Shown here in pieces: positions 3,460 through 38,127 of a DNA stretch of 64,000 nt (its first letter is position 1; the number at the start of each line of letters is the position of its first letter). The DNA comes from a virus (Duplodnaviria; Caudoviricetes). The stretch covers positions 37,653 to 101,652 of IMG/VR virus record IMGVR_UViG_3300049012_000071. The stretch is one strand, 5' to 3'. Both the position numbers and the translations under genes were made by a program. The notes under the pieces were generated by a model, which did no database searches, was not told the origin of the DNA, and saw nothing but the letters and a program-made list of their open reading frames with translations.

Positions 3460-3470
3460 GGAGGAGCGAG

Positions 3471-3863
3471 ATGGCGTTGCAGGACCAGGCCAAGAAGCCC
3501 CGCGGGTTTGCGGCCATGACGCCGGAGCGTCGCCGCGAGGTCGCCAGCGCCGCCGGGAAGGCTGCGCATGCGCAAGGGCGTGCGCCCGAGTTCACTCCAG
3601 AGCAGGCGCGCGCGGCGGGCCGGAAGGGCGGGGAAGCCGTGAGCGCCGACCGGGAGCACATGCGGGCGATCGGGCGGCGCGGCGGCGAGAGAACGAGCGC
3701 AGACCCGGCGCACATGGCCGAGATCGGTCGCGCCGGAGGTAATGCCGCCCACGCGAACGGCGCGGCGCATCAGTGGACTGCCGAGGAGGCCCGCGCCGCT
3801 CGCCGGAAGGTGGGTGGGAAGCGGAAGACGGAAGCGCTGCAGAGCCGCAACGCGGAGAGCTGA
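3471..3863 (+). CDS. KGG-repeat stress-induced protein (YciG/GsiB-like)
   Basis: RGFAAMTPERRREVASAAGKA, AAGRKGGEAVS-DREHM-IGRRGG repeats; GAGGAGG RBS. Confidence 0.85.
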   Translation: MALQDQAKKPRGFAAMTPERRREVASAAGKAAHAQGRAPEFTPEQARAAGRKGGEAVSADREHMRAIGRRGGERTSADPAHMAEIGRAGGNAAHANGAAHQWTAEEARAARRKVGGKRKTEALQSRNAES

Positions 3864-3873
3864 GGAGGGCGTC

Positions 3874-4737: not shown

Positions 4738-5077
4738 CGTCACGGTGGACCAGATCGTCGAGCGTGTGGTCGCGGTGCTGCGTCCTGAGCTGGACGCCAT
4801 CCGCCAGCTCGTCGAGCGCTCTCCCGTTCCGGGTAACGACGCCCAGACGGGCCAGCTCCTCACGCGCGAGGAGCTCGCCGCAGCGCTCCGCCTCAGCGAG
4901 GCGACGCTGAAGCGTTGGGACCAGGACGGCTGCCCGCGCGTGCTCATCGGCAACCGGCTCCCGCGATACCGGCTCGCCGACGTTCTGGCATGGCGCAGCA
5001 CGGCGCCGTCGAAGCCGGCGCGGGTCTCGGCGGTGAAGCCCGCGCCCGTGCGGCTGCTCTCGCGGGGGAGGAGGTAG
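4730..5077 (+). CDS. excisionase-like HTH protein
   Basis: LLTREELAAALRLSEATLKRW...RYRLADVLAW; directly upstream of the integrase. Confidence 0.8.
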   Translation: MRDVTVDQIVERVVAVLRPELDAIRQLVERSPVPGNDAQTGQLLTREELAAALRLSEATLKRWDQDGCPRVLIGNRLPRYRLADVLAWRSTAPSKPARVSAVKPAPVRLLSRGRR

Positions 5078-5079
5078 CC

Positions 5080-13232: not shown

Positions 13233-13918
13233 AAGAGCCGTTTCGCGTTCTGCTCGCCGACCCGCCGTGGCTCTTCCGGGACAAGCTGCCTGGTCGCGGC
13301 CGTGGGGCCAGCAAGCACTACAGCTGCATGGGAATCGATGCGCTGAAGCGCTTCGAGCTCCCGCCGCTCGCCGACGACTGCGCGCTCTTCCTCTGGCGCT
13401 GCTCGGCCATGCCGCAAGAGGCGCTCGACCTCATCAAGGCGTGGGGCTTCACCGTCAAGAGCGAGATCGTCTGGGAGAAGTGCAGGCCGTGCGGCCCGTG
13501 CAAGGGCGCCGGCGCGGTCGTCCGCCGAGGCGCTAAGTCGAAGTGCCGCGGCTGCAACGGTCTCGGGGTGCGCCCGTTCTTCGGCATGGGCCGCTACGTG
13601 CGGAACAGCCACGAGACGTGCCACATCGCCGTTCGCGGCCGGCCGCAGCGTCGCAACGCAACCTCGGCGCGGAACATCCTGTCGCGGTTCGCCGCCCCGA
13701 TGCCGATTGGCGCCAACGGCCGCCCGATCCACAGCGCGAAGCCCGACGCGATCCACCAGTTCATCGAGCGGATGTACCCGGGCCCGTACGTTGAAATCTT
13801 CGCCAGGAGGCACCGGCCCGGGTGGGTGTGCCTCGGGGATGAACTGCCAGGCCAGAAAAGCGAAACGCCGGCGGGTGGAGCCGCCGGCGTCTCAGGTGCG
13901 GAGGTAACGCAGCGATGA
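13229..13918 (+). CDS. MT-A70 family N6-adenine methyltransferase with inserted Zn finger
   Basis: LLADPPW, LFLW, AWGF, GMGRYVRNSHE, HSAKP, EIFAR. Confidence 0.9.
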   Translation: MKEPFRVLLADPPWLFRDKLPGRGRGASKHYSCMGIDALKRFELPPLADDCALFLWRCSAMPQEALDLIKAWGFTVKSEIVWEKCRPCGPCKGAGAVVRRGAKSKCRGCNGLGVRPFFGMGRYVRNSHETCHIAVRGRPQRRNATSARNILSRFAAPMPIGANGRPIHSAKPDAIHQFIERMYPGPYVEIFARRHRPGWVCLGDELPGQKSETPAGGAAGVSGAEVTQR

Positions 13919-14250
13919 AGGTCTTACAGCAGCAGAAGGAACACGTCAAGGCGCTCCGGCAGAAGCTCGATGAGCTGGAGACTCGCGGCCTCCTCCAGGA
14001 CGTCAGGCTCATCTGCTCGCGGGAGGGCGCGATCGTCGAGGAGATCTTCGGCGACCGTCGCAGCGCCCACATCGCGCGGGCGCGCCGCATGGTCTGGTGG
14101 GAGCTCAAGGACCGCGGCTGGACGTACGCCTTCATCGGCGAGTTCTTCAACCGCGAGCACTCGACAGTGATGAGCGGCATCCAGCGCGCGGCGCGGGAGC
14201 TGGGACTCAAGGCGCTGCCTGGGGCGCGCGCGATGAAGGAGGCGGCGTAG
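13915..14250 (+). CDS. DnaA C-terminal-like HTH protein
   Basis: ARARRMVWW...IGEFFNREHSTVM. Confidence 0.75.
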   Translation: MKVLQQQKEHVKALRQKLDELETRGLLQDVRLICSREGAIVEEIFGDRRSAHIARARRMVWWELKDRGWTYAFIGEFFNREHSTVMSGIQRAARELGLKALPGARAMKEAA

Positions 14251-14961
14251 ATGGGAAGCGTTCGACGCGTCGATCCATGGAACCACAGGCAGCGTCCGGC
14301 TCTCCTTCGCCTCATCAGGCTGACCGAGAGCCCGGCCGAGGCGCTGCTCCTCCCCGCGCTGCTCGCCCACGGTGGCCCCGAAGCGCACGTGATCGGTCCG
14401 GCGGGGCACTGGACCCTGGAGGCGCAGGTCAGCGTCCAGACGCGCGGCCGCGCGTACCGGGTCGACTTCGCTGCAACCTGGGGCGATCGCAAAGTCGCCA
14501 TCGAGGTCGACGGATGGGCGCACCATCACGCGACTGAGGACCAGGAGTGCTACGACGCGACCCGCGACTGGGCCATGGGCAACGTCGGCTGGGTCGTGAT
14601 CCGCCTCGATGCCTACAGGGTCTTCAAAGACCCAATGGGTTGCGCCGCTGAGGTGGCCGAGCAGCTGCACCAGGTCGATATCCAGGCGCGGACGGTGGCG
14701 AAGACGCCGGTCGAGCATCAGACGGAGGAGGAGTTCGCGGCCCTCGTCCTCGAGTGGGAGGGCTACATCGCCGAGTGCGAGAAGAACGGCTACCCGGAGG
14801 GCGCCGCCGAGAACCGTCGGAAGCTCGACCGCATGAAGATGGCGCGGTCGAAGGCGAAGGCGGTGCGAGACATGGTCAAGGCGGCCGGGTCCAGCGAAGG
14901 TGAAAACGAAATCCTGCGAAAGCTCTTCTCCGAGCGCGCGCGTCAAAAGGGGCTGGAGTGA
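14251..14961 (+). CDS. DUF559/Vsr-like endonuclease
   Basis: ESPAE, YRVDFA, VAIEVDG..HH, RD......GWVVIR. Confidence 0.8.
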   Translation: MGSVRRVDPWNHRQRPALLRLIRLTESPAEALLLPALLAHGGPEAHVIGPAGHWTLEAQVSVQTRGRAYRVDFAATWGDRKVAIEVDGWAHHHATEDQECYDATRDWAMGNVGWVVIRLDAYRVFKDPMGCAAEVAEQLHQVDIQARTVAKTPVEHQTEEEFAALVLEWEGYIAECEKNGYPEGAAENRRKLDRMKMARSKAKAVRDMVKAAGSSEGENEILRKLFSERARQKGLE

Positions 14962-16592
14962 TGGCGGCACCCGACCTGTTTTCGAAGGTCTCGCGGCGGA
15001 TGTGGCGCGACGAGAAGTTCGTCGCCCTCAGTGCTCCGCCGCCGAACGCGCGCGACCTATGGGTCTACCTGCTGACCGGTCCGCACAACGGGACGATCCC
15101 CGGCCTCTTCGTGCTGGGCGAGCTCGCGCTTGCCGAGGACATGGAGTGGGACCCCGAGCCGACCCGATCCTGTCTCCATGAGATCCTCGCGAAGGGGATG
15201 GCCCGCTTCGACCGGAAGCGGCGCCTCTTCTGGCTGCCGAACGCCATCGCCCACAACCTGCCGCGGAGCCCGAAGCAGGTGATCGGGTGGTCCAAGGCAT
15301 GGAAGCTGCTACCCGAGTGCTCGCTCCTGGCCGAGGCTGCGGCGGGCATCCGGGGGCATCTTGCCGCGAAGAGCCCCAAGCTGGCCGAGGCATTCGACCA
15401 GGTGGTCATGGGCCTGGTCGAGCCAGTCGACTCGTCCGGTGAGCTCGACCTTGGCGACGAGGTGGATCCTCCGCCCCCCACAGCCAGGTCCGCTACCTCA
15501 GAAACCCGCGGGATTTCTCTATCGGATAGAGAACGCGATTCCTATCCGATAGAGAACGCGGTTCCTATCCGATTCCAAGAGCAAGAGAAAGAGCAAGAGA
15601 AAGATCCCCCCTTCGGGGGAGTACGCGCGTGCGCGCGGGAGGCACCCTCTGGGGTGGGCGAGGACCGTTCTGGGTTCGGCGACTCGCCGGCGGGCCAGGA
15701 GCGGCGCGACGTCCAGCGTGACGAGCCGGAGGCCGAGGGGTCCCGCATCGGCGCGTCCACGGGGCAGCGGCGTGGGGGGGATTGGCAGCGACGCTCTGGG
15801 GCCGCAGCACGCTCGACGGTCGAGTCCGACGAGGAGCGGGCGATCCTCCAGATGCTCAGGTCCATCCCGAGCCTCCGGTCGGTGGCCAACGGCGGCCTGG
15901 CATGCCGGATCGCTGACCACGTAGCCGGGGGCCCGCACACCGGGAAGCTTCCGCTGGAGGACGCCATGCTGGCCGTGCAGCGCGCTGGCGAGCGGGAGGC
16001 CGACGAGGCGGCCGGCAGGGGCATCGGGCGGGAACAGGGGCAGCTCTCTGGGTTCGTGATGTCCTTCGTGAAGTCGCAGCAGATCGGCGAGGCGCGGGCG
16101 GTGGCCGCGCGCGAAGCGGCTCTCGACCCTGGCCTGGTCACCCGCTTTCGGGAGTACTTCGACAAGGAGTGGTCGAAGGCCAAGCGCGGGCGCACGAGAG
16201 CTCACGCTGCCGGCGACGCGGATCACGCCGAGCGCCTGGCGCTGCTCGCGCAAGATGGGGCCACGCGCGCCGGCGGAGGCATATCGGCGGAGGCTGTCTT
16301 GGCGCACTGGACCCACGAGCACCTCAGGTGCATGGAGAAGTTCATCGCCGACGCGGACCACCCGCTGCGCCTGATGGCGAGCCGCGTGGACAGCTACGGC
16401 TTGCCTCGGCCGAAGGCCGCCCGCGCGGTCGAGCAGACCACGAGCGCCAGGCCGCCGGCCAGCAGCCCCGAGGACGCGGCTGCCGCGCTGCACCGGATGA
16501 AGGCTGGCGCCGCAGCTGCGCGCGCTGCCTTGACCCAGCAGGTCGGGTCCGTCGACGCCTACGCGCCTCGCCGCGCGATGGGGGCCCAATGA
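14958..16592 (+). CDS. phage replication initiator protein
   Basis: N-terminal MWRDEKF.ALS...LWVYLLTGPH wHTH; internal iterons; upstream of dnaB. Confidence 0.75.
   Translation: MMAAPDLFSKVSRRMWRDEKFVALSAPPPNARDLWVYLLTGPHNGTIPGLFVLGELALAEDMEWDPEPTRSCLHEILAKGMARFDRKRRLFWLPNAIAHNLPRSPKQVIGWSKAWKLLPECSLLAEAAAGIRGHLAAKSPKLAEAFDQVVMGLVEPVDSSGELDLGDEVDPPPPTARSATSETRGISLSDRERDSYPIENAVPIRFQEQEKEQEKDPPFGGVRACAREAPSGVGEDRSGFGDSPAGQERRDVQRDEPEAEGSRIGASTGQRRGGDWQRRSGAAARSTVESDEERAILQMLRSIPSLRSVANGGLACRIADHVAGGPHTGKLPLEDAMLAVQRAGEREADEAAGRGIGREQGQLSGFVMSFVKSQQIGEARAVAAREAALDPGLVTRFREYFDKEWSKAKRGRTRAHAAGDADHAERLALLAQDGATRAGGGISAEAVLAHWTHEHLRCMEKFIADADHPLRLMASRVDSYGLPRPKAARAVEQTTSARPPASSPEDAAAALHRMKAGAAAARAALTQQVGSVDAYAPRRAMGAQ
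15519..15603. repeat. putative replication origin: 23-bp-period iterons plus A-rich tract
   Basis: CTATC(G/C)GAT at 15519, 15542 and 15565 with AGAGAACGCG.TTC spacers, then (GAGCAAGAGAAA)x2. Confidence 0.7.
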
Positions 16593-18106
16593 GGGGCAGC
16601 CGTCTCGCTCGGAACATCCGCGATCGCGGCGAGGCCGGAGCTCGCCCTCAGCGCGTCGCGGGGAAGGTTGCTCAGATCGACCTGCACCTCGAGGGAGGCG
16701 TCCTCGGCACGTGCCTAACGGTCGAGCAGCGGCGGACCGAGGCGCTTGAGTACGTGCGCCCGGAGTACTTCTGGAGCGGGCCGAACGAGTGGCTTTTCCG
16801 GGCGATCGTTGACCTGAGCCTGACTGGCTCGGTCGTTGACGCGATCTCGCTCGCTGCTTGGCTCAAGGACCGCGGGCGATTCGAGGTGGTCGGCGGCTTC
16901 GAGTACATGAAGGAACTCAGCAATACATTCGCCGAGGTCCACGACATGCGCTCTGCCGGAAAGCGGCTCTGCGATCTGTGGCGCATGCGGCGTGTCATCG
17001 AGGTGTGTACGCGCGCGAACGCGGAAGCGTACGCCGACGAGGTGGACGACAGGAGCGCGTGGATCGAGCGCGTGGAGGCGTCCATCTACGAGGTGGCGCA
17101 CCCGGTCGAGCGATCTGAAGTCAAGCACATCAACGACGTTCTCAAGGTGTCGTTCGATCGGATGGTCGCCGCAGCCGAATCGGGGCAGAGGATGCGCGGT
17201 ATCCCCACGAGGTACGATCTACTGGACGCGATGCTCGCGGGGCTGCACGACGGCGCCCTCACGCTCGTGGCCGGTAGGCCAGGTCAAGGGAAGACGTCGT
17301 TTGCTTTGAACCTAGCCGTGAATGTCGCGTCGCCACGCAAGGCGGCAGTGGCCGATGGTGCTACCGGCGAGCTGCGCGACGTCGACGCCCCGGGGTTCGG
17401 CGTTGCGGTGTTCTCGCTGGAGATGATGAAGGAAGAGCTCGGCGAGAAGATGGCTTGCTGCGAGGGGCGCGTCGACATGGAGCGCCTCCGCACCGGTATG
17501 GCGCAGCCGGACGATTGGCGACGCTTGACCGATGCGTCCCAGTATTTGTCGACGCTGCCGATTTGGATCGACGAGCAGACGTCGACCACGCTCCTCGAGA
17601 TTCGGTCGAAGCTGCGGCGGATTCAGGCGCAGTGGAACCGGCCGGCAACGGACGGGCAGCCAGAGCGCCGGATCGGACTCGTGGTGATCGACTACATCCA
17701 GCTTATGAAGGGGTCCGGTGAGACGGATAGCCGCGAGCAGGAGGTGGCCGAGATATCGCGCGGGCTCAAGCAGCTGGCCAAGGACTTCAAGGTGCCGGTG
17801 GTGGCGCTGTCGCAGCTAAACAGAAGGGTCGAACAGCGGAGCGACAAGAATAAGCGGCCGCAGCTCTCCGACCTCCGCGAGTCGGGATCGCTGGAGCAGG
17901 ACGCGGACAACGTGCTTTTCGTTCATCGCGAGGAGTACTATCTCGGCGCCGACACGCCCGCGGATCTCAAGGGCATCGCTGAGATCATCGTCGCGAAGCA
18001 AAGAAATGGGCCGACTGGCAAGGTACTGATGCGTTTCGCGAAGGCGTACACGCGCTTCGATACGCTTCAGCGCCATGAGTACCCCGACGGGCTTTGCGAT
18101 GAATAA
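16589..18106 (+). CDS. dnaB: replicative DNA helicase DnaB
   Basis: AGRPGQGKT, FSLEM, VIDYIQL, LSQLNR, DLRESGSLEQDAD, KQRNGPTG. Confidence 0.97.
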   Translation: MRGSRLARNIRDRGEAGARPQRVAGKVAQIDLHLEGGVLGTCLTVEQRRTEALEYVRPEYFWSGPNEWLFRAIVDLSLTGSVVDAISLAAWLKDRGRFEVVGGFEYMKELSNTFAEVHDMRSAGKRLCDLWRMRRVIEVCTRANAEAYADEVDDRSAWIERVEASIYEVAHPVERSEVKHINDVLKVSFDRMVAAAESGQRMRGIPTRYDLLDAMLAGLHDGALTLVAGRPGQGKTSFALNLAVNVASPRKAAVADGATGELRDVDAPGFGVAVFSLEMMKEELGEKMACCEGRVDMERLRTGMAQPDDWRRLTDASQYLSTLPIWIDEQTSTTLLEIRSKLRRIQAQWNRPATDGQPERRIGLVVIDYIQLMKGSGETDSREQEVAEISRGLKQLAKDFKVPVVALSQLNRRVEQRSDKNKRPQLSDLRESGSLEQDADNVLFVHREEYYLGADTPADLKGIAEIIVAKQRNGPTGKVLMRFAKAYTRFDTLQRHEYPDGLCDE

Positions 18107-18190
18107 CCACTCCCGCCTTGCCCTCCCAACCCCATCTGCTAAACCCCACTTGCGCAGCCTGGAGACAGTGAGCGCGGAGGAGAATTGACG

Positions 18191-23679: not shown

Positions 23680-24626
23680 GCGGGGCGTGCTGCTCGGTGG
23701 GGGCCCGTCCCGACGCGGCGGAGATCGACGCGGCGCTGAGGGCATCAGCCGAGGCTATCGCGTCCGGGAAGGACCCGCCGGAGAGCATCAACGCACTGGC
23801 GCGGCGCACCGCGGCGTCGAAGACATCCATCCTGCGGCACCGGGATCGGTGTCTTGGACTGGTCCATCTGGCTCGTGGTCCAGACCAAGTGGAGGTGGAC
23901 CGGGTGGCAAGAACGCCGGATTTGTCCGGTGGACCGGCGGTGGACCGGCCAGTCCAGCTCGGTCCGAGCGCGGCGCCGCTCGAGGAGGCGGTCGACGAGC
24001 TCGCGCGGCCCCTGGCCAAGGTCCCCAACCCAGGGGACGACCCGGTGACGGCCCCGCGGAAGCTCATCACGGCCGAGGTGGAACGGCGCGTGGTCCGGCT
24101 ACGGGTCCGAGGCAAGACATGGGAGGAGATCGGGGAACAGGTGGGCGTCGACTGGGGCGCCGCGATGGACGCAGCGGAGCGGGTGCTGCTCCGGACGCGG
24201 GGCAGAGCCGACCGGCTGGCTGACCAGTACCGCGAGATCGAACTCCGTCGCTGCGACGAGCTCATCGACGCCCTCTGGGACCGGGCAACGAACCCTGACA
24301 TGGCCCGCGTCGAGGTGCCCACCGAGGAGACGGTCAAGGAATACGACCTCCAGGACAAGGCCGTCGAGCGCATCGTGAAGCTTATGGAGCGCCGAGCAAA
24401 GCTGCTCGGACTCGACGCACCGACAGGCCCTGTGGTGCAGGTCAATATCGGCCTGGATGAGGCCAGCCGCGCCATGGCCGCGTTCCTCCTGGCCGCTGCG
24501 CCGCAGGTGCGCCCGTTGTTCGTCGAGTGGCTGTCGGCCATCCGGTCCGGCGACGCACAGGCCAAGACGGACCCGGCGGCCTGGGTTGCCGCGCGACCAG
24601 TCGAGTACGCGGAGGCCAGCCGCTAA
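23676..24626 (+). CDS. terminase small subunit-like protein
   Basis: HTH LRVRGKTWEEIGEQVG; ERRAKLLGLDAP; overlaps terL. Confidence 0.7.
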   Translation: MSGACCSVGARPDAAEIDAALRASAEAIASGKDPPESINALARRTAASKTSILRHRDRCLGLVHLARGPDQVEVDRVARTPDLSGGPAVDRPVQLGPSAAPLEEAVDELARPLAKVPNPGDDPVTAPRKLITAEVERRVVRLRVRGKTWEEIGEQVGVDWGAAMDAAERVLLRTRGRADRLADQYREIELRRCDELIDALWDRATNPDMARVEVPTEETVKEYDLQDKAVERIVKLMERRAKLLGLDAPTGPVVQVNIGLDEASRAMAAFLLAAAPQVRPLFVEWLSAIRSGDAQAKTDPAAWVAARPVEYAEASR

Positions 24627-26257
24627 TGGGGGAGCCCGCAGACAACCTGGAGCGCTTCGCTGAGGCAGCTCTGGAGGTAGCCAGCGGGGACGTCGCCAAC
24701 GACAACGGCCCAGCGCTCGGCCCAGGTCTCTCCTTCGAGACACTGGTCACACACCGGGACCTCGCCGCCTTCCGGGCGTCGCCGACCCAGCTCGCACTCA
24801 TCCGCTCCGCCGATGGGCGCGGGGACGAGGTGCAGCTCCCGCCCGACCGGATGCTGTTCCACTTCAACCAGGAGCGCCTGCCGAGCGGTCGCCCTCGCCT
24901 TGTGGTGCTCCGGACCGGGGTTCGCGCGGGGAAGAGCTTCCTGGCCGCGATGGCGCTGCTCCTCTCGGTGCTCACCTGCACGTTCCGGCGCGCGCCGCTC
25001 GAGCACGAGGTCGCCGATCCGGACGGCATGGTGGGCGTCCGCAAGGGGGAGTTCGTCCGGGCGCTCATCGTGGCCCCGGTGATGGAGCTGTCGAAAGCCG
25101 TCCTCTACCACCTCGTGGGGACGATGCAGTCATCGCCGAGGCTGGCGAAGCTGCTCGTGAAGGTCGGCAGCAACTTCTGCGTCATCCGTCGGGAGGACGG
25201 GCACAATGTCCTTGTCAAGCTCGTGGCCGCGTCGGGCGGCGGCACGAACCTGCGATCGACGTGGCTTGCTGGGGTGGTGTTCGACGAGGGGGCGTTCTTC
25301 GACGAGGACGGCAAGGCTGTCACGCTGAAGGACCAGCTCCGCGCGGCGATGGCGCGCCTGCTGAAGGGCGCCCAGGCATGGGTGCCGAGCTCACCGTGGA
25401 ACGACTCGGACCCGTTCCACGAGCTCTTTGAGAGGCACTTCGGCAAGCCTGGGCACGCGCTGGCGTTCCACAGCGACTCGCGCAGCATGAACCCAACGCT
25501 CGACCCGGATGAGGAACAGGCCGAGCGCGAGCGGGACCCCGACAACGCGGCGCGGGAGTACGACGCGGTGCCGCTCCCGACAGGCTCGTCGCTGTTCTTC
25601 CCGCCGGACGCGTTGGTCAAGTCGGTGAACAAGGACAGGGAGATGTACCTGGCGCCGCTGCGCGGGGTGGCGCACTCTGCGGCGTCCGACCTCGGCCTGC
25701 GGAAGAACAGCAGCGCGGTGGCCACGGCCCGCTTCGAGGGCGGCAAGGTGCGGCTCGCCTACCACGAGGAGCTCCGGCCCGAACGCGGTGCCTCGCTGAA
25801 GCCGTCGGCCACTTGCGCCCACGTCGCGAGGAAGGCGCTCGCGTACGGGTGCAGGACGGTGCGCGGCGACATCCACTACGCCGACACCGCGAAAGAGGAG
25901 TTCGAGAAGCTGCGCGGCGAAGGTCACGAGATCTACTACGACGAGTGGACACCGCGTGCGGAGGCGACCACGGCGATGTTCACGGAGTTCCGCCGGCGCA
26001 TGCAGGAGGGGCTCGTCGAGCTGCCAAACGACCCGCGGCTACTCGGGCAGCTGAAGGCGGTGACGTGGAAGGCGATGGAGGGCGGCGTCATCAAGGTGCT
26101 GCTGCCCAAGCAGGGGCAGACCCACGGCGATCTGGCGCAGGTGGTGGTCAGCGCCTGCACAATGGTCGAGATCCCGACTCCGGGCGGCGTGGCATCGATC
26201 AAGGACTACACCTTCAGCGCCGACTACCGCTTCGGCCGGGGCAGGGGCTTCGGGTGA
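24626..26257 (+). CDS. terL: terminase large subunit
   Basis: Walker A GVRAGKS, Walker B VVFDEGAF, SSPW, ASDLG, HGDLA nuclease acidic residues. Confidence 0.85.
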   Translation: MGEPADNLERFAEAALEVASGDVANDNGPALGPGLSFETLVTHRDLAAFRASPTQLALIRSADGRGDEVQLPPDRMLFHFNQERLPSGRPRLVVLRTGVRAGKSFLAAMALLLSVLTCTFRRAPLEHEVADPDGMVGVRKGEFVRALIVAPVMELSKAVLYHLVGTMQSSPRLAKLLVKVGSNFCVIRREDGHNVLVKLVAASGGGTNLRSTWLAGVVFDEGAFFDEDGKAVTLKDQLRAAMARLLKGAQAWVPSSPWNDSDPFHELFERHFGKPGHALAFHSDSRSMNPTLDPDEEQAERERDPDNAAREYDAVPLPTGSSLFFPPDALVKSVNKDREMYLAPLRGVAHSAASDLGLRKNSSAVATARFEGGKVRLAYHEELRPERGASLKPSATCAHVARKALAYGCRTVRGDIHYADTAKEEFEKLRGEGHEIYYDEWTPRAEATTAMFTEFRRRMQEGLVELPNDPRLLGQLKAVTWKAMEGGVIKVLLPKQGQTHGDLAQVVVSACTMVEIPTPGGVASIKDYTFSADYRFGRGRGFG

Positions 26258-26303
26258 GCGCGGCGTCGCGACCTAAGACGGCAGACGCTCTCCCACGCTA
26301 ACA

Positions 26304-26323
26304 TAGTACGCCGTGGCGTATCA
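26304..26323 (-). promoter_or_regulatory. operator 1 within leftward promoter TTGCAC-N17-TACTAT
   Basis: Reverse strand TGATACGCCACGGCGTACTA. Confidence 0.8.
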
Positions 26324-26488
26324 ACGTGCAAGGGTGCAACGCACGTGGCGTGTCGATTCTTGGAGGCGGCGCGAGTCGGAGCCTCGGCGGGTGTGGCTCG
26401 GCCCTTGCTGATAGGGCATGCGCCCAGGCCGCCGTCTGGGCAGCTGCGCCAGCCTGTGGCGATGCCCGCCCCGCTGGCCTTGGGCTGA

Positions 26489-26508
26489 GGGGCCGGTCGC
26501 CCGGCCCC
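26489..26508 (-). terminator. GNRA-capped hairpin after small gene
   Basis: GGGGCCGG-GCGA-CCGGCCCC on the - strand; no U tract. Confidence 0.45.
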
Positions 26509-26516
26509 CGCCTCCC

Positions 26517-26690
26517 TCACCGCCAGCCGCTCTTGAACAGGTCGGCCATCATCTTGCGGCACTCGGCCTTGGTGATCTCCATCTCGCGAGCGCCCTTCTC
26601 GTCCGTGGTGATGACCTTGGTCATGTTGCGCTTCGAGCTCTTCGCCAACTCCACCGTCGTTCCCGTCGTCCTCTCCGTCAGCTTCACCAT
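26517..26690 (-). CDS. 57-aa small protein under operator control
   Basis: MVKLTERTTG...FKSGWR; GAGG RBS; promoter directly upstream. Confidence 0.7.
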   Translation of the reverse strand: MVKLTERTTGTTVELAKSSKRNMTKVITTDEKGAREMEITKAECRKMMADLFKSGWR

Positions 26691-26710
26691 CGCCGCACCT
26701 CGTGACCTGA

Positions 26711-26730
26711 TGATACGCCATGGCGTATCA
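26711..26730 (-). promoter_or_regulatory. operator 2 (perfect palindrome) in promoter TTGCCA-N17-TATCAT
   Basis: TGATACGCCATGGCGTATCA. Confidence 0.88.
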
Positions 26731-26868
26731 GTTGGCAAGGACTGTTTGAGGTGGTCGGTCGTTTTTTCGGAGAGGCCACTGCGGCGGTGCGGTGGACGAT
26801 GTGTGACAGCGTCTGTGCTATGACGCTCAGCCAGGCAGCGGCGCCTGGCCGGAGCTGCCCCGGGGCGA

Positions 26869-27168
26869 TCACGAGCCCTTGGCACGCGGCTTCCGCTTCT
26901 GGGCCTCCTCGCTGGCCTCCGACGGCCTCGACGCGCGGCTGGTGCCGAGCTCGGTCTCCCCGGTGATCTCGAAGCGGTAGCCCGTGACCTTGGCGATGTC
27001 GCGCAGCGCCTCCAGGCTGGGCCGCTGGCCGCCGTATAGCTCGCTCATGGTGGCCCGGCGGATCTTGCCACCGGCTCCGAGGATGCGATGCATGACGGCA
27101 GCCTGGCCTCCGGCTGAGTCGATGGCGGCCCGGAGCTGGTCGGTGATGCTCGGCGGCGTCTTGCTCAT
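26869..27168 (-). CDS. XRE/Cro-like HTH repressor, leaderless
   Basis: RRATMSELYGGQRPSLEALRDIAKVTG; ATG 6 nt after a TATCAT -10. Confidence 0.75.
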   Translation of the reverse strand: MSKTPPSITDQLRAAIDSAGGQAAVMHRILGAGGKIRRATMSELYGGQRPSLEALRDIAKVTGYRFEITGETELGTSRASRPSEASEEAQKRKPRAKGS

Positions 27169-27175
27169 GCCGTCA

Positions 27176-27195
27176 TGATACGTCGTGGCGTACCA
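27176..27195 (-). promoter_or_regulatory. operator 3 in promoter TTGCGC-N17-TATCAT of the HTH gene
   Basis: TGATACGTCGTGGCGTACCA. Confidence 0.85.
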
Positions 27196-27280
27196 TGGCG
27201 CAAGCTCCAGATGCGAGCTGGCCAGCGCGAGGCGGCACCTGGGGGAATCGACAGGGCGCCCCCAGAAACCTCTTGCGCCA

Positions 27281-27300
27281 TGATACGCCATGGCGTATCA
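27281..27300 (+). promoter_or_regulatory. operator 4 (perfect palindrome) in promoter TTGCGC-N17-TATCAT
   Basis: TGATACGCCATGGCGTATCA. Confidence 0.88.
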
Positions 27301-27307
27301 TATGGGT

Positions 27308-27574
27308 ATGAAGTCGACGACGCGAGCCCGGGGCCAGAACATCAAGGTCAACGTCCGCTACAGCAGCTACAACGACGTCACCTTCATGACGGTCCAGGCC
27401 GGCGTCGTCTCTATGCGCGGCTCGGTCGAGGGCCGCGGCATCCCGGACGTCTGGCACGTCGAGGTCGGCACCAAGAACTGGGGCCGCTGCGTGACCAGCG
27501 ACCTCAAGCTCTACACGATGCGCGGCCGCGGTATCGCGGCGATGATCAAGGCGATGCGGACGGGGCGGATCTGA
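27308..27574 (+). CDS. 88-aa small protein, leaderless
   Basis: ATG 6 nt after -10; GC3-rich codons. Confidence 0.7.
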   Translation: MKSTTRARGQNIKVNVRYSSYNDVTFMTVQAGVVSMRGSVEGRGIPDVWHVEVGTKNWGRCVTSDLKLYTMRGRGIAAMIKAMRTGRI

Positions 27575-27580
27575 GGGGCG

Positions 27581-27604
27581 GCGGGCCCGGGAGACCGGGC
27601 CCGC
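27581..27604 (+). terminator. 10-bp GNRA-capped hairpin
   Basis: GCGGGCCCGG-GAGA-CCGGGCCCGC. Confidence 0.5.
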
Positions 27605-27623
27605 ACCAGCGGAGGAGGCAGCG

Positions 27624-27839
27624 ATGAAGACGACGGATGCGTGGGGCAGGACGAGGGAGCGGGCAGTCGAGAGTGCGCGCAGGGTGGCGGCGCTCCACCC
27701 GGGGAAGGAGCTCGTGCTTGGCCGGCTCTACATGAGCCCGCGGCGCTGGCTGTGGGGCGAGCGCTTCGGCGACAAGGTGGCCCGGGAGCTCGACACCGGC
27801 GAGCGCTGGGAGCCTGTCGAGGTCGTGACGGCGGGGTGA
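27624..27839 (+). CDS. small hypothetical protein
   Basis: GGAGGAGG RBS. Confidence 0.65.
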   Translation: MKTTDAWGRTRERAVESARRVAALHPGKELVLGRLYMSPRRWLWGERFGDKVARELDTGERWEPVEVVTAG

Positions 27840-27903
27840 TGGCAGCGCCGGTGTGGGCCGAGGCGTAGAATCGACATGACCGTGACGATTCACGGTTGCG
27901 CAG

Positions 27904-27923
27904 TGTTACGCCACGACGTATCA
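27904..27923 (+). promoter_or_regulatory. operator 5 in promoter TTGCGC-N17-TATCAT
   Basis: TGTTACGCCACGACGTATCA. Confidence 0.82.
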
Positions 27924-27978
27924 TGGTAGCGTGGGAGAGCGTGGCCCGCATAGGGCGCGATGTCGACAAGGAGGTGGC

Positions 27979-28227
27979 ATGATGCATCGCATACAGAATG
28001 ACTCTCGCTTTCAGCGGTTGCGCCATCGTCGGCGCACCAGGGCAGCTGAGCGCCGGGCGTTGTCGCGAGCGAAGCGGACCGTGGCTCGGTGGCAGCAGTC
28101 GCGTCGCGGGATGACGCCATCGAGTCTTTACCTGGAGCGCGTCGCGGTGGGCGGCTGGGTGTACGTGCTCTGCGACCTGGGCGACTCCAGTGGTAGAGCC
28201 TTTGCTAGATTCCGCGCCTGGCGATGA
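27979..28227 (+). CDS. basic hypothetical protein
   Basis: AAGGAGG RBS. Confidence 0.55.
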   Translation: MMHRIQNDSRFQRLRHRRRTRAAERRALSRAKRTVARWQQSRRGMTPSSLYLERVAVGGWVYVLCDLGDSSGRAFARFRAWR

Positions 28228-28318
28228 AGCTACGTCTCATGTCGATTCTTCCTTGCGCCTCACTGGCCATCAGCTAGATATGGTATCGGACGGGAGCGCG
28301 CGTCTCCCTGGAGCTAAC

Positions 28319-31300
28319 ATGAAGCGTTCGCCCTACCGCCCCACGCCGCCTGTGCCTCCGCTGCTGGTGTGGCCGCGTGTCGCTCTGGCTGCCTACGATC
28401 TCGGCCGCGCCATCCGTCGCCACGGACCGTCCCGTCGAGCGCGCGTCATCTTCGGCACCGGGCTGCTCCTCGGCGCCGTCGCCGGGGCGCTTGCTGTCCG
28501 CCCCGCGCGCCGCTGCTACCTCGAGCGCGTCGGCTCCGGCGTGGCGCTCGTGGCGGATGCGCCGCTGTGGCCGGACCGGGAGATCGCCTACCTGCCGCGC
28601 GTGGACAAGGCGTTCGAGCTAGCGCGGCGCGTGGGATGCGAGGTGAGGCCGTGACGGTCGACGCGCACGGCCCCACGCTCGACGAACTCGCGGCCATGCC
28701 GCCGCAGCTCTCCAGGCTGCTCTTCGGAGTGGAGGTGTCCCGCGTGTTCGACGACGCCGTCCTGCTCCGGTACGACTCGGCAGGAGGCGCCGCTGCCGGC
28801 CTCGCTGAGGCGGTGTGCTCTGCCAGCGCCGTGGGCCTGGAGCCCCGCCGACCACGCACGGCGCTCGGGAGCGGGGTGGTTACGGCCGATGGCTACGGCC
28901 CGCGGCGCGCCGCGGCGGTTGAGGTCCGCGCTGCGAGCGCGCGACCGTGCTGGCGGATCACGGCTCCATCCGGGCGGGCGTGGTACGTCGCCGACGACGC
29001 CTTCGTGTACCTTGGGTTGCCGGGCTCGTTCAAGCTGGAGCGCGTGGCCGCTCCTCTGGTGTTCGAGGTGAGGCCGTGACGGCCACGAACCTGCGGATCG
29101 GTCCTCTCTGCGCTCACGTCGGCGACGGCATCTACTGGGCTCGCCTGTGGGAGCGTGGTCCGGGGCTCCATGTGAAGGACAGGTCCAGGCACCCACTTCT
29201 CTTCAGCGGGCGCGGTGTGCGGGTTGGCCGGTGGCAGCTGCGCGTGCTGGGGATGGCGACACCGTCGCCGCGAGGAGAACGGGATGGGCAAGATCCGTAT
29301 TGAAGTCCGCGGCCCCGAGGCCGACGTCAACGAGGTGGTGCGCTGCATTCGCGCGTGGAGCATCGACGGGTGGGAGGTCAATGGCGTCCCGCCAGCGACG
29401 CCGTCGTCGCGCCGCCTGACGCGCCTAGGCGCATTCTACGACGGTCTGATGGTTGGCGTTCTCGGTCTGACGGCGTGGACCTCGCTGCGTCAGGACTACC
29501 TCGACGGCTACATCGCCACCGTCCGAGCTGGGTGGGCCGACTGGCGCTACACGGTGCCGCTCGCGATCGTGGCACTGGTCGCGTGCCTCGTCGTTGGTGT
29601 CGGCACGATGCGCCGGGCGCGCGCGGCCGACTCGGTGGAGCGGTGACGAAGCGATGACCGTCCCCTGCCCGCACACGCCGCCGCACCCGCACGACCTCCG
29701 CCCCTGCGAGCCGTGCAGCCACTGCAACGCGCCGGCGGGCGTCTGGTGCGCGCCGCGCTGCCCGCGAAAGCTGGAGCGCACGGGCGTCTCGCACGGCAAC
29801 GCGGGGCCGGAGCGGTGGCCGGCGGAGTGGTTCCGGAGGCCGGCGGCAGCCGAGGCGCCGGCGGTCGTGACGTTCCGCACGGCGGACGGCGTCGAGCTCG
29901 GCAGCGTGGTGGCCGACGTCCTGGAAGAGCATCTGTGCGGCGGTGGCGCGGGCGGAGGCGGAGGCGAGAGCCGATGAGCAACGAGAAGGCCCGCATCGCG
30001 GTCAACAGCGTGGCGCCGCCGGGCGCGGTGGAGCTCAAGGTGGCGGTCAAGGAGGCTGGCTGATGAGAAGCGTCGAAGACGTGACGCAGCGAGCGCTTGC
30101 CGGCGGGCGCTGGTGCGCGCCGGACTTGCGTGAGCTTCGGGCGCGCGGGTACGACACAGGCGCGGAGCCCGTCTATTGCTGGTTCGGCCTGTGCTGCTTC
30201 ATGGCCGGCGAGCCGTACGTGATCTGGGACGACCACAGCACGACCAGTGTCAGCGAGATCGCCGACCCCGCCGGCGGGTGGGAGCCCATCGGCGATGACG
30301 TGACTCCGGTTGACCCGCCGCCTGTGGGCACGAAGCGCTGGCTGGAGGCGCTGGCGGCGAGCTGCACCGGGGTAGCGGCAACGGCGCGGAACCTGTGCCC
30401 AGGGACCGTGCTTGTTGAGCTGGCCGGCGAGCCTCGCCCCGACAGCGTGGGCGCCTTCGTCCTCCAGGCGACGCAGTGGTGCAAGGTCGCGATCGAGATC
30501 CGGTGGACGGAGAAGAGAGACGTCTTCGATGCAAGCTGACCTCGAAGCCGAGCTGATGCGCCGGGTCCACGACGGGGAGTTCGCGCGCGACGTCATCGGA
30601 GACCTGCTGGCCCGCGGCGCCATCGCGAGCCCGAAGCAGGGCTGGCGCACGCTGGAGAAGTGGTGCGACAAGGGCTGGTACAACTTCGGCGTGTCGCTCG
30701 ACCTGGGCTGGATGACCGAGAAGGCGCCGTGCGGGAGGTCGGTGGTGCGGGAGCTTCCTGCGTGGCTCGCACCGGCTCCGTCTGGGCACGCATCGGCGAA
30801 GGTGCCGCAGGAACCGGCGAAGAGCCCGGCGGAGTGGCGGGAGATCATCGAGCAGCAGCTGAAGGAGCTCGGAGGCGAGTCCGTCGTCGGGCCGCCGCTG
30901 CTGCGGGAGCTGACGTTCAGCCTCGCTCCGGCGCCGCTGCCGGAGCAACCAGCCGAGAGGAAGCTGGCGATCACGGTGCTCGTGGTGGGCGGAGCTGGCG
31001 CCGGCGAGAAGACGGCATGAGCGGCGCGCGGTGGCGTGGCGAGATATCATGAGAGCGGAGGAGCGATGACGGAACAGGAAGAGAACGCGTACCTCAGAGG
31101 CGAGCGCGCGGCGCTGGTGCGCATCATGACGGAGTGCGCGCGCCAGCTCGGCTACGAGGACCCGCTGGCGAAGGCGGCGTTCCTGATCGAACAGATCGAA
31201 TCCGCCAAGGCCAAGCTGCGCGAAGCCTGCGAGGAGTTCGGCGATCCTGACTTCGAGGACGATCTGCACCTGGCCGACATCATCGACAACCACCTACTCG

Positions 31301-32455: not shown

Positions 32456-33025
32456 ATGAGAAGTTTGTTTGAACTGCACGAAGTGTGGAACCAACAGGCG
32501 GAAGCCAGGGTGGCCGCGCTCCACGCCAGGAGAGAGGCCGATATCGCCGCCCGTGCAGCGGCCAGGCGGGCCAGCAAGGCACGCATGAAGGACATGGCCG
32601 ATGCCGAGACCCATCGGGAGGCGCTTCGCTTCTGGGCACTCGGCGCCGAGGCGATCGGAGAGCTGGTCTACTCGTCGCCCACGCACGTGAGGCTCCTCGC
32701 CGAGCGGCTCCGGAACGGCCTTTTCCACGCCGGGAAGTCGGTGGTGTACTTCATTGGCGCAGACCGAGCCGACGCGCCTGTCAAGATCGGAACCACGGTC
32801 GTGCTGGGCAAGCGCCTGGGCGAGATTCAGATCAACACGCCGGAGACCCTCCGGGTTCTCGCGGTGATCCCCGGCGATGCATCGATCGAGCGCGTGCTCC
32901 ACGGCGTCTTCGCGCGTGATCGTGTCCGAGGCGAGTGGTTTCGGCGCTCACCCGTCATCGTCGACTTCATCGAACGCCTAAACCGCGGGCCCAAGCCGGA
33001 GCAGAAGAAGGCGCGGCGCAGGTAG
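32456..33025 (+). CDS. T5orf172/GIY-YIG-like domain protein
   Basis: VVYFIG...PVKIG...RL.EIQ..TPE.L...ERVLH.VF...RGEWF. Confidence 0.8.
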   Translation: MRSLFELHEVWNQQAEARVAALHARREADIAARAAARRASKARMKDMADAETHREALRFWALGAEAIGELVYSSPTHVRLLAERLRNGLFHAGKSVVYFIGADRADAPVKIGTTVVLGKRLGEIQINTPETLRVLAVIPGDASIERVLHGVFARDRVRGEWFRRSPVIVDFIERLNRGPKPEQKKARRR

Positions 33026-36726: not shown

Positions 36727-38127
36727 ATGGGTGTCATCACATGGCTGCGCGCGGCCGCGAGCAGGCTGACGCGGCCTGTGGCGATCGTCGACTCGCCGTC
36801 AGTCTACGACCAGAACGAGCGGATCGGCGGCTCGCTTACCCCGCAGGACGTCTCGCAGATCTACCGCGAGGCCGACACGGGCTACATGTGGCGGCTCGTC
36901 GATCTCGCCGACGAGAGCCGGCAGAAGGACTGCCACCTTCAGTCGATCCTGTTCACGCGGGAGTCCTCTGTCGCGGGGCTCGACTGGCAGATCACGCCGG
37001 CGAGCAACACGGCCAAGGACAAGAAGATCGCGGCGTGGTGCGACGAGTGGATGCGGGGCTTCGGCGCTGACGACCCGGGGCCCGAGCCGCGCGACCTGCC
37101 GAACCTCATCAGCCATCTCCAGGGCGCCGTCTACTACGGCTACGCCGTCGCGCAGATCCTCTGGGAGCGGAGCGAGGGGAAGATCATCCCTGTCGGCGCT
37201 GAGCCGGTGCACCCGCGCAGGTTCTGCTACGAGCCCGACCACGGGCGGCTGCACTTCTGGGACAACAACGGCACGGTCCCGTACCCGGGTGTCAGCCTCG
37301 TCGAGACGTACCCAGGGCACTTCATCCAGTACCAGCCCAGGCTCAACGGGGGCGTCGCGACGCGTGAAGGACTCATGCGCGTACTCCTCTGGGCCGCGAC
37401 GTTCCGCAACTGGGCTCTCTCCGACTGGCTGAAGCTCGCCGAGATCGCCTGGAAGCCGTGGCGGATCGGCAAGTACAACAAAAAGGATTCCTCCAAGGAG
37501 GACATCGCGATCCTCCTGCGCGCGTTGCGGGAGCTCTCGTCGAGCGGCGTCGCAATGCTGCCCGACTCGGTCGAGTACGCGATCGAGTGGGCGAAGGCGA
37601 GCGGAAGCGGGGGTAACGGCGGCGAGCACGCGGCGCTCTGTGCCTTCCTCGCTGCCGAGATGACGAAGGCGGTGCTCGGCGCGACGCTCGGTGTCGACCA
37701 GGGGCGCGTCGGGTCGCAGGCGCTCGGCAACGTTCACGAGCGGCGCATGTACAGCGCCTTTGAGTGGGACGCGCTCAACATCGCCTCGGTCCTCCGTCGG
37801 CAGATGATCGCCACGGCGGTCCGGAAGAACTTCGGCGTCAACGCGCGCATCCCCGGGTTCGCCTTCCTCACCGAGGACGCCGCGGACTTCGAGGCGACGG
37901 CCCGCGGGTTCCTCTACCTGCGGCAGGCGGGGCTCCGCGTGGCCGCGAAGGACCCGCGCGATCGTCTCGGTCTCTCTGAGCCGCTCGACGGCGACGAGAT
38001 GCTCGATGACGTGGCCGACGCGGCGAGGCTGCCACGCGGCGTGCATCGCGACGGCGAGGACGAGTCCGGCAAGGACGGCGGCGACAAGCAGGCCGAGAAC
38101 GACGCCGCGAAGGGCGACGACGAATGA
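36727..38127 (+). CDS. portal protein (Mu gp29/DUF935-like)
   Basis: AVYYGYAVAQILW, GLMR.LLW...W.PWRIGKY, MTKAVLG.TL, GSQALGNVHE. Confidence 0.88.
   Translation: MGVITWLRAAASRLTRPVAIVDSPSVYDQNERIGGSLTPQDVSQIYREADTGYMWRLVDLADESRQKDCHLQSILFTRESSVAGLDWQITPASNTAKDKKIAAWCDEWMRGFGADDPGPEPRDLPNLISHLQGAVYYGYAVAQILWERSEGKIIPVGAEPVHPRRFCYEPDHGRLHFWDNNGTVPYPGVSLVETYPGHFIQYQPRLNGGVATREGLMRVLLWAATFRNWALSDWLKLAEIAWKPWRIGKYNKKDSSKEDIAILLRALRELSSSGVAMLPDSVEYAIEWAKASGSGGNGGEHAALCAFLAAEMTKAVLGATLGVDQGRVGSQALGNVHERRMYSAFEWDALNIASVLRRQMIATAVRKNFGVNARIPGFAFLTEDAADFEATARGFLYLRQAGLRVAAKDPRDRLGLSEPLDGDEMLDDVADAARLPRGVHRDGEDESGKDGGDKQAENDAAKGDDE

Follow-up and report, generated by a model that had tools for sequence, protein, structure and literature searches.

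A compact module of small genes behind shared palindromic promoter sites, with a predicted helix-turn-helix regulator, in a temperate soil phage

The window examined here is a stretch of 64,000 nucleotides from the 101,652-bp record of a soil phage. The phage is temperate, with a tyrosine integrase gene at 4915-6921 and a separate Cro-like gene at a divergent region, and the module described below lies ~20-27 kb from these two genes, between the terminase gene (24527-26257) and the portal gene (36727-38127). Judged by sequence comparison, it represents a phage lineage without a cultured relative. Cultured phage records contained no match to the window DNA from 24500 to 30500 or to the 99-aa protein of the module, and the portal protein is at most 31% identical to that of any cultured phage. 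A scan of genomes with terL returned no match, and a scan with the portal returned one MAG labelled Pseudobdellovibrionaceae, a label to be read with the unreliable binning of phage contigs in mind; a search of 40 relatives of this MAG with the portal reached 28% identity at best, with no close relative among them. Among the sequencing datasets listed as matching the phage none is of RNA, and the one strong match is the soil metagenome that is its probable source.

Five copies of a 20-bp palindrome lie within 1.7 kb of the window, each within a predicted promoter, and 14 more sites are present in four related metagenomic pieces (L005, L022, L044 and L045). The leftmost promoter (26296-26331, − strand) has its −35 box at 26326-26331, its operator at 26304-26323, its −10 box at 26303-26308 and a predicted start at 26296. 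The first-pass annotation, made from the sequence letters alone, held that all five promoters drive genes, but the leftmost has only a 7-codon frame downstream and is aimed into the 3' end of terL. This promoter and its leader recur singly in L044 and L005, and a 183-aa ORF lies behind the L005 copy. The segment 26284-26331 is also the left arm of a ~47-bp inverted repeat, the right arm of which (27896-27942) holds the rightmost promoter (27896-27931, + strand; −35 at 27896-27901, operator at 27904-27923, −10 at 27919-27924, predicted start at 27931). The first ~12 transcribed bases are common to these two outer promoters.

The 57-aa gene (26517-26690, − strand) is the most conserved of the cargo genes, with relatives 81-89% identical. 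Its promoter carries a perfect operator (26703-26738, − strand; −35 at 26733-26738, operator at 26711-26730, −10 at 26710-26715), and its transcript has a short leader with a ribosome-binding site. The 99-aa gene, which encodes the proposed repressor (26869-27168, − strand), is monocistronic, is divergent from the 88-aa gene and has its own promoter (27168-27203, − strand; −35 at 27198-27203, operator at 27176-27195 with three mismatches, −10 at 27175-27180). The 88-aa gene (27308-27574, + strand) lies behind a promoter with a perfect operator (27273-27308, + strand; −35 at 27273-27278, operator at 27281-27300, −10 at 27296-27301), and the operator centres of the two divergent promoters are 105 bp apart. 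The 71-aa gene (27624-27839, + strand), placed in the same order in L045, has its own ribosome-binding site, lacks a dedicated promoter and is probably transcribed by read-through from the 88-aa promoter. Behind the rightmost promoter lies an arginine-rich 82-aa ORF (27979-28227, + strand) with a strong ribosome-binding site and a weak coding signal. The next ORF is preceded by a promoter-like site without an operator (28253-28281). The earlier claim that the module also drives the downstream array of small ORFs is thus only partly right, since the 82-aa ORF, with a ribosome-binding site of its own, stands behind the 27904 promoter but the ORF after it follows an operator-less site.

GC-rich hairpins with GNRA loops had been noted after the 57-aa and 88-aa genes, and both are present. 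The one 3' of the 57-aa gene (26488-26509, − strand; 9-bp stem, GCGA loop) folds no better than shuffled sequences (z = −0.77), although L005, L022 and L044 each have a hairpin in the corresponding position, and it is a candidate terminator or stabiliser. In contrast, the hairpin between the 88-aa and 71-aa genes (27581-27604, + strand; 10-bp stem, GAGA loop), which is conserved in L045 and L005, has a z-score of −3.6 and is equalled in folding by only one of 200 shuffles. Neither hairpin is followed by a U-tract.

All five sites share one register, in which a −35 box of the form TTGNNN is followed by 2 nt and then the palindrome, with a spacer of 17 nt and a −10 box made of the final 5 nt of the palindrome plus one extra base (TATCAT in four promoters and TACTAT in one). 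Each site extends from about −27 to −8, over most of the spacer and the −10 box. As the annotation had it, the copies at 26711 and 27281 are perfect palindromes and those at 26304, 27176 and 27904 are variants; the latter have three mismatches each. The promoters at 26304, 26711 and 27176 face left while those at 27281 and 27904 face right. Its core consists of two 7-bp arms (ATACGCC and the complement) around a 2-bp centre. Shuffled sequence yielded no match to the palindrome, against five in the window. A scan of the rest of the virus record found no additional copy with up to three mismatches and no credible one with up to six, so that the five module copies are the only ones in this phage record. 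A strict consensus scanner listed the 26711 promoter alone (10 of 12 matches); the other four have weaker −35 boxes. The hexamers presumably correspond to those of a housekeeping sigma factor rather than to RpoH or ECF types, and the phage itself encodes two sigma-70-family proteins that could read these promoters. A MerR-type activator was dismissed because the spacer is of the optimal 17 nt and not of 19-20 nt. The promoter at 27281 is chimeric in appearance.

The same register is found in all 19 sites of the five elements (window, 5; L005, 7; L022, 2; L044, 2; L045, 3). Site positions 4-9 (TACGCC), which adjoin the −35 box, are invariant in all 19, and flanking positions carry ~0 bits; we know of no sigma contact with positions 4-9. 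A conserved upstream element containing AATCGAC lies 20-24 nt 5' of the −35 box and does not vary among five promoters aligned from four elements; the window has it at 27245-27252 (+ strand), with further copies at 27868-27875 (+ strand) and 26352-26359 (− strand). The site in the repressor gene's own promoter is degenerate in all three elements that have this gene, with three mismatches in the window and L045 and four in L005, where it is the weakest. Both outer promoters of the window have three operator mismatches as well.

In two of the window promoters an ORF begins exactly 6 nt past the −10 box, namely the 99-aa gene, with its ATG at 27168, and the 88-aa gene, with its ATG at 27308. Both genes are therefore predicted to be leaderless, as the annotation had proposed for the former. 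The same distance occurs in the relatives (at 348, 2173 and 3709 in L005, at 708 in L022 and at 1080 in L045). Homologues of the 88-aa protein are 45-67% identical, and both of those whose promoter was read (L005 and L045) are leaderless behind an operator-bearing promoter. A distance of 6 nt leaves no space for a ribosome-binding site, and these starts lend the promoters independent support. Reading the promoters as sigma70-like is an assumption, and we also assume that leaderless mRNAs are translated efficiently in the host.

Operators and the 99-aa protein are found together in three elements, the window, L005 (protein 61% identical) and L045 (84% identical). The window and L005 have three proteins in common and no more, and cassette order varies among the relatives. 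In four of the five elements, namely the window, L005, L022 and L044, the sites occur together with the 57-aa gene, which is better conserved than the HTH gene. More distant homologues of the HTH protein, in L011 (49% identical) and L050 (35% identical), have an imperfect palindrome with related arms that ends in the −10 box of their own leaderless promoter, and in L049 (40-44% identical) a related palindrome lies in a divergent promoter. A metagenome scan for the motif gave 29 matches, among which only L022 was clearly related; L026 has a single site in an unrelated context, and the remaining matches were set aside as chance occurrences in low-GC sequence. Scans of viral contigs for the exact palindrome and for the protein pattern found no match.

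The 99-aa protein is, on sequence and model evidence, a divergent helix-turn-helix protein of the Cro/CI (XRE) type. Its own best Pfam score (E = 0.045 to HTH_26) falls below the cut-off for any HTH family, and the HTH identity given in the annotation holds through its relatives and its predicted structure instead: eight of nine aligned relatives match PF01381 (best E = 3.4e-6) and four of nine match PF13443. The AF2 model (pLDDT 78) has helices at residues 8-18, 22-31, 38-45 and 52-62, followed by a conserved strand at 64-70 that is predicted to form the dimer interface. The best fold matches are nearly all XRE repressor domains, led by ImmR (Z = 7.3, rmsd 2.2 over 60 aligned residues), TP901-1 CI (Z = 7.2) and DdrO (Z = 7.2), with SinR, C.Esp1396I, P22 c2 and 434 Cro among the others; a Z near 7 is middling for a small helical domain. 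A homodimer model scored 0.57 against 0.00 for the best control, with 100% contact agreement between runs and a partner pLDDT of at least 72, and places the interface at residues 49-72. Of the proteins solved as one-chain pairs, 20 of 30 attained this mark, as did one of 23 solved as single chains. Because XRE dimers have already been solved, the result may partly reflect likeness to them.

From the sites, with their register and conservation, and from the HTH fold and dimer predicted for the protein, all of them read from sequence, we infer that a dimeric 99-aa repressor probably blocks RNA polymerase at all five promoters, its own included. The dimer would bind the palindrome through the ATACGCC arms around the 2-bp centre and, because the site covers the spacer and −10 box of a promoter with a 17-nt spacer, a bound dimer would exclude RNA polymerase. 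The operator copy in the repressor's own promoter would likewise entail negative autoregulation. The earlier proposal of an autoregulated unit is supported by the joint occurrence of protein and site, the homologues' palindromes in register, the dimer model and the position of the site over spacer and −10, which would imply repression. Upon fresh infection, with repressor absent, all five strong promoters would fire. Translation of the leaderless repressor mRNA would then be expected to shut the perfect-site promoters of the 57-aa and 88-aa genes first and the repressor's own promoter, with its weaker site, later. The presumed outcome is a burst of expression followed by shut-off, and the immediate-early timing named in the annotation is likewise presumed. 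The cargo is arranged as one- or two-gene cassettes, each with a promoter-operator ahead of the small gene or genes and several of them ending in a GC-rich hairpin.

Such an architecture has precedents in multi-operon Aca regulators, controller proteins of RM systems and multi-operator phage repressors. Published work describes regulation of adjacent operons, two or three together, as well as regulation in both directions, for Aca1/2, Aca11/13 and Aca14 (PMC13551039, PMC12282945, PMC6765145). The module resembles Aca systems in its small, predicted dimeric regulator, in inverted repeats over the −10 and −35 boxes of strong accessory-gene promoters and in the proposed self-repression, and the regulator's own promoter has an inverted repeat of the Aca type (27176-27195, over the spacer and −10 box), as it does in L045 and L005. 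However, the regulator gene of the module is monocistronic and leaderless behind its own promoter rather than the last gene of a cargo operon, there are five to seven regulated promoters per element in the window and L005, and the cargo includes no known acr or anti-defence gene. The leaderless promoters also leave no room for the RNA-binding layer in the 5'-UTR of Aca1 and Aca2. No Aca chain appeared in the PDB-sequence profile search or among the fold matches listed.

Controller proteins such as C.Esp1396I, C.AhdI and C.BclI are dimeric HTH proteins of the XRE type, comparable in size and fold (Z = 6.0-6.7), that regulate themselves through palindromic sites at their own promoters, and leaderless transcription is common among C genes. 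These proteins act through paired sites that lie upstream of the −35 box and across it, for activation and then repression, whereas each promoter of the module has one palindrome. Because this single site fills the spacer and −10 box, only repression would be expected here, unlike with C proteins. Neighbouring ORFs showed no restriction or methylase domain. P1 C1, mycobacteriophage L5 gp71 and the phiC31 repressor, the last with conserved inverted repeats, resemble the module in having many operator copies in or next to early promoters, and the module protein matches the fold of the Cro/CI family members TP901-1 CI, P22 c2 and 434 Cro. Multi-operator phage repressors maintain lysogeny from sites spread over the genome; in contrast, the sites of the module lie within 1.7 kb, serve tiny ORFan genes only and are set apart from the Cro-like gene and integrase. 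Nor does the module have the form of a divergent CI/Cro switch, as it contains one HTH gene only and the divergent 88-aa partner has no DNA-binding signature.

In circuit logic the module would match Aca-controlled anti-defence operons. The 57-, 88-, 71- and 82-aa proteins had no match in Pfam, PHROGs or PADLOC, none of which is an anti-defence library, and the ESM Atlas gave no usable match for the cargo proteins. The 57-aa protein is predicted to fold into four strands and one helix, and its matches were middling: the N-terminus of 2ra8 gave Z = 6.6, WGR domains of PARPs gave Z = 4.0-4.5, and viral models gave E values no lower than 0.065. We considered them too weak to name the fold. The anti-CRISPR or anti-defence role put forward in the annotation found no support, with the cargo lacking any match in these databases or informative fold and the regulator standing outside the cargo operon, unlike in canonical acr-aca loci. 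As the cargo proteins match nothing, assigning them such a role is unsupported guesswork.

A tentative extension, which we consider unlikely though conceivable, is that the promoter-operator unit doubles as the recombination handle of a cassette platform. The ~45 bp of near-identical sequence that precedes every small gene might let phages gain, lose and reorder cassettes, and each gene acquired would come at once under the resident repressor. It is extremely improbable that the repeats are just recent promoter duplicates, or the ends of a mobile or invertible segment, without operator function. The inverted repeat of the outer promoters does run into the transcribed leader, relatives do differ in cassette order and the 27281 promoter does look chimeric, but neutral copies would decay evenly and the palindrome has stayed invariant while its direct flanks and the proteins diverged (45-61% identity). 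Moreover, no transposase or recombinase lies in or beside the module, and the long inverted repeat amounts to two copies of a promoter-plus-leader unit that is single in L005 and L044; on these grounds we dropped the transposon or invertible-segment reading. We also attach little probability to the idea that another factor (a host regulator, the 57-aa or another phage protein, or a phage sigma factor) binds the palindrome in place of the 99-aa protein, with the HTH gene as one more cassette. The 57-aa protein is a possible binder or co-factor, because it is better conserved than the HTH protein and accompanies the sites in four of five elements, and the phage encodes two sigma factors. However, a twofold-symmetric site suits a dimeric HTH protein while sigma factors read asymmetric elements, and the −35 and −10 boxes are, we take it, of housekeeping-sigma rather than RpoH or ECF type. 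The HTH homologues that are 35-49% identical keep a palindrome, with no 57-aa homologue in the contig stretches read, and neither the 57-aa nor the 88-aa protein has a DNA-binding signature, nor does the 57-aa model show a recognisable DNA-binding fold.

Two further readings accept the repressor and differ in what it serves. The cassettes might be morons expressed from the prophage for lysogenic conversion, superinfection exclusion or defence, with the repressor holding expression at a low steady level in the lysogen instead of allowing an early burst upon infection, which we regard as rather unlikely. This would suit a temperate phage with an integrase and a Cro-like gene, and negative autoregulation can provide steady output; a promoter of its own for each cassette, a terminal hairpin in several of them and insertion between terminase and portal fit the classic description of morons. 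Nevertheless, classic morons are unrelated genes with unrelated promoters, whereas these cassettes share an operator and a dedicated repressor. In addition, the cargo has no match to a PADLOC defence family, and the consensus-like promoters with their A-rich upstream element suggest high peak output and not a trickle. It is also quite improbable that the module serves, as immI does in P22, as a second region of immunity or antirepressor control, in which the HTH protein represses a small antirepressor (e.g. the 57-aa or 88-aa protein) that acts on the main repressor. The separate primary switch region elsewhere, with its Cro-like gene and integrase, the organisation of the module as a regulatory unit complete in itself, with 105 bp between its divergent promoters, and the strong purifying selection on the 57-aa protein (81-89% identity), as expected for a binder of a conserved partner, would all be compatible with this. 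Yet the module contains no second regulator of the Arc/Mnt type, its cargo is unlike known antirepressors, and the L005 module sits amid ORFans with no recognisable switch genes close by.

If the repressor model is true, the palindrome could be used to look for tiny phage genes under common control that databases do not recognise, in the way that new anti-CRISPR genes have been found through Aca sites, and the module would provide high-GC bacteria with a set of promoters that are strong, repressible and leaderless. If the recombination-handle reading is true, the palindrome would be a tag by which high-GC soil phages could be searched for a pool of new early or anti-defence genes. Our understanding of phage regulation would be unchanged, because the regulatory logic is textbook; the module looks like a familiar kind of circuit made from new parts, a compact regulon comprising a single 99-aa protein, a single 20-bp site and five promoters in 1.7 kb. 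Outside the module, a look-alike of the −35 box and the first bases of the site, ~830 bases before the window start, proved to be the start of a gene rather than an operator.

The palindrome TGATACGCCATGGCGTATCA occurs as exact copies at 26711 and 27281 and as variants with three mismatches at 26304, 27176 and 27904, as the first-pass annotation had described; the scan of the rest of the phage that it proposed gave no further copy in the whole 101,652-bp record, and shuffled sequence gave no match. Each copy lies within a promoter, named here by operator start, and all five promoters have one layout when oriented by direction: a −35 box TTGNNN, 2 nt, and then the 20-bp site, whose final five bases begin the −10 box (TATCAT in four promoters, TACTAT in one) after a spacer of 17 nt. 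Three promoters face leftward and two rightward, as previously proposed, and their hexamers look like housekeeping-sigma boxes. The ATGs of the genes for the 99-aa helix-turn-helix (HTH) protein (27168) and the 88-aa protein (27308) both lie exactly six bases 3' of the −10 box, so that transcripts are predicted to start at the A of the ATG, in agreement with the earlier description of the HTH gene as leaderless.

We compared the module with related metagenomic pieces carrying the same site: L005 (11.4 kb, seven sites), L022 and L044 (two sites each) and L045 (three sites), a 1.5-kb contig of a MAG in which there is also a portal of 74% identity. The promoter register is the same in 19 of 19 sites from the window and these pieces. 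An ORF start lies six bases after the −10 box at seven promoters (those of the HTH and 88-aa genes in the window, L005 348, 2173 and 3709, L022 708 and L045 1080), which supports the promoter calls because ORF start and −10 box are independent features that agree. Site positions 4-9, adjoining the −35 box, are invariant in all 19, and the bases just outside the site hold almost zero information; we know of no base-specific sigma contact at positions 4-9. This pattern argues against simple promoter copying and for a site that is read on both halves. The HTH, 57-aa and 88-aa proteins (61, 87 and 45% identity, respectively) are the only three that the window and L005 have in common, and cassette order differs between the two; thus site and register were kept while nearly all else changed.

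The window, L005 and L045 each contain both the HTH gene and the sites, and in all three the promoter of that gene has a degenerate copy, with three mismatches in the window (as in the two outer window promoters) and L045 and four, the weakest match there, in L005. Two contigs with more distant HTH homologues, L011 (49% identical) and L050 (35%), each carry an imperfect palindrome, with a 2-bp centre and 7-bp arms one position off ATACGCC, that ends in the −10 box of the homologue's own leaderless promoter, and a third such contig, L049, has a similar site in a divergent promoter. The palindrome might instead be bound by a host factor or by the 57-aa protein, but this would explain poorly why distant homologues keep the palindrome-in-promoter design. 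At 3400-4640, L011 has three or more other leaderless promoters that form a family of their own: they share a conserved spacer sequence and are not related to the palindrome in the promoter of its HTH gene.

By itself the 99-aa protein falls below every Pfam and PHROG threshold, and an HMMER scan of all 1.8 billion representatives returned only 13 relatives; PF01381 was matched by eight of nine aligned short family members. In its AF2 model (pLDDT 78), four helices precede a conserved strand, and the best structural matches (Z 6-7.3) are almost all XRE (Cro/CI-type) repressor domains, among them ImmR, TP901-1 CI, DdrO, SinR, C.Esp1396I, P22 c2 and 434 Cro; a Z of about 7 is no more than middling, yet the list is coherent. 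A two-copy model reached 0.57 against 0.00 for the best control, a mark attained by 20 of 30 proteins solved as one-chain pairs and, among those solved as single chains, by 1 of 23, with contacts agreeing 100% between runs, partner pLDDT of at least 72 and a predicted interface at residues 49-72, including strand 64-70. This result may partly reflect likeness to XRE dimers that have already been solved. The protein belongs to a new and rare HTH family, and its operators are unusually dense and tidily arranged.

Because the site reaches from about −27 to about −8 in promoters whose 17-nt spacer is optimal, its occupancy should block open-complex formation. We rejected a MerR-type activator, for which a spacer of 19-20 nt would be needed. 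The circuit would be one of negative feedback with graded operator strength, with perfect sites at the 57-aa (26711) and 88-aa (27281) promoters and an imperfect one at the repressor's own, and DNA entry into a repressor-free cell would give a burst of expression followed by ordered shut-off. The two divergent operators are spaced 105 bp centre to centre in the window and L045, and 104 bp in L005; at this distance, about ten helical turns, cooperative binding is conceivable. We consider this repressor-regulon mechanism as a whole to be likely, and the predicted binding and repression by themselves more so.

Many-operator phage repressors are classic (P1, L5, phiC31), and the controller proteins of restriction-modification systems share both their fold and their leaderless habit with the present protein. 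Aca regulators resemble it as small autorepressors acting, as is well described, at inverted repeats over the −10 box of strong promoters for small phage genes. One recent study describes Aca-type regulators with sites at up to three neighbouring operons and reports that Aca14 repressed two operons in experiments (PMC13551039), and Aca11 and Aca13 are reported to exert bidirectional control (PMC12282945). Unlike Aca loci, however, the module lacks operon linkage of regulator to cargo and any known anti-defence gene among that cargo, and unlike controller-protein loci it lacks restriction-modification genes and paired boxes. It works like both but is filed under neither: the circuit type is already known and the HTH family is new. 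The anti-CRISPR or anti-defence reading initially offered, with architecture as its sole basis, appears overstated.

The regulon also seems smaller than first suggested. The 26304 promoter precedes only a seven-codon frame pointing antisense into the 3' end of terL. The same promoter and leader drive a 183-aa ORF in L005 and face convergent genes in L044, which suggests that the window copy is a remnant or an antisense promoter. The 27904 promoter precedes a single 82-aa ORF with a weak coding signal, and a promoter-like site without the palindrome precedes the next ORF; the long downstream small-ORF array, formerly placed under the module, is thus not clearly in the regulon. The outermost promoters (26284-26331 and 27896-27942) form an inverted repeat of ~47 bp that takes in about 12 bases of each predicted transcript. 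Both transcripts start with GTG, and the leaderless GTG at 27931, likewise in L005, is in frame with a downstream start bearing a ribosome-binding site. Both GC-rich hairpins reported with GNRA caps are present (26488-26509, loop GCGA; 27581-27604, loop GAGA), but only the latter folds better than shuffles, and neither has a U-tract. Hairpin 27581-27604 stands between the 88-aa gene and the 71-aa gene, which lacks its own promoter, in the same order as in L045, and may be a partial terminator or RNA-stabilising element and not a full stop.

In L045, the divergent promoter is separated from the 88-aa cassette by an additional cassette of 0.7 kb. When window 27215-27335 was compared with L045:284-404 and L045:1014-1134, the part of the 27281 promoter upstream of the site matched the first of these L045 promoters, and the part downstream of it, together with its gene, matched the second. 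It thus looks chimeric, the trace expected of recombination between two directly repeated promoter-operator units, and is consistent with loss of the 0.7-kb cassette by that route. On this basis, and from very few sequences, promoter-operator units might also serve as recombination handles for cassette turnover.

The IMG/VR virus record, of which the window covers bases 37653-101652, is linear, 101,652 bp long, ~81% complete and ~70% G+C, and the only public run strongly containing it is a soil metagenome; no close cultured phage was found by DNA search, 99-aa protein search or portal comparison. The phage is temperate, with a tyrosine integrase (4915-6921) and, where the strand switches immediately ahead of the window, a Cro-like gene. 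Its other products include RecT, DnaB, an HNH protein and two members of the sigma-70 family. The genes for these two (whole-record coordinates 13662-15032 and 17263-18174, outside the window), in which regions 2 and 4 were detected, flank a DEAD/ResIII helicase gene. The module sits between the large terminase (terL, 24527-26257, PHROG 2) and a Mu-type portal (36727-38127), which are separated by ~10 kb of small genes. The sole ORF among these with any family match encodes a 189-aa protein (32456-33025) with a T5orf172/MUG113 (GIY-YIG-like) domain and a weak PADLOC match to PDC-S57 (E 9e-5).

An AATCGAC-containing element occurs at 27245-27252, 27868-27875 and 26352-26359 (minus strand), as well as in L005, L022, L044, L045 and L042, a more distant phage contig. 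It lies 20-24 nt upstream of the −35 box in most of these promoters, usually after an A-rich run, is invariant across five aligned promoters, and may be an UP-like element or a second factor's site. In L042 (4400-12400), which encodes an 86-aa protein homologous to the 88-aa one (67% identity), at least seven promoters, several of them leaderless, have in common another conserved spacer motif, placed immediately behind the −35 box, which looks like the same cassette style under another regulator. The palindrome-less site in the window (28253-28281, within 28241-28322; TTGCGC, 16-17 nt, TAGATA), ahead of the ORF starting at 28320, resembles this L042 family and has an inverted AATCGAC element just upstream.
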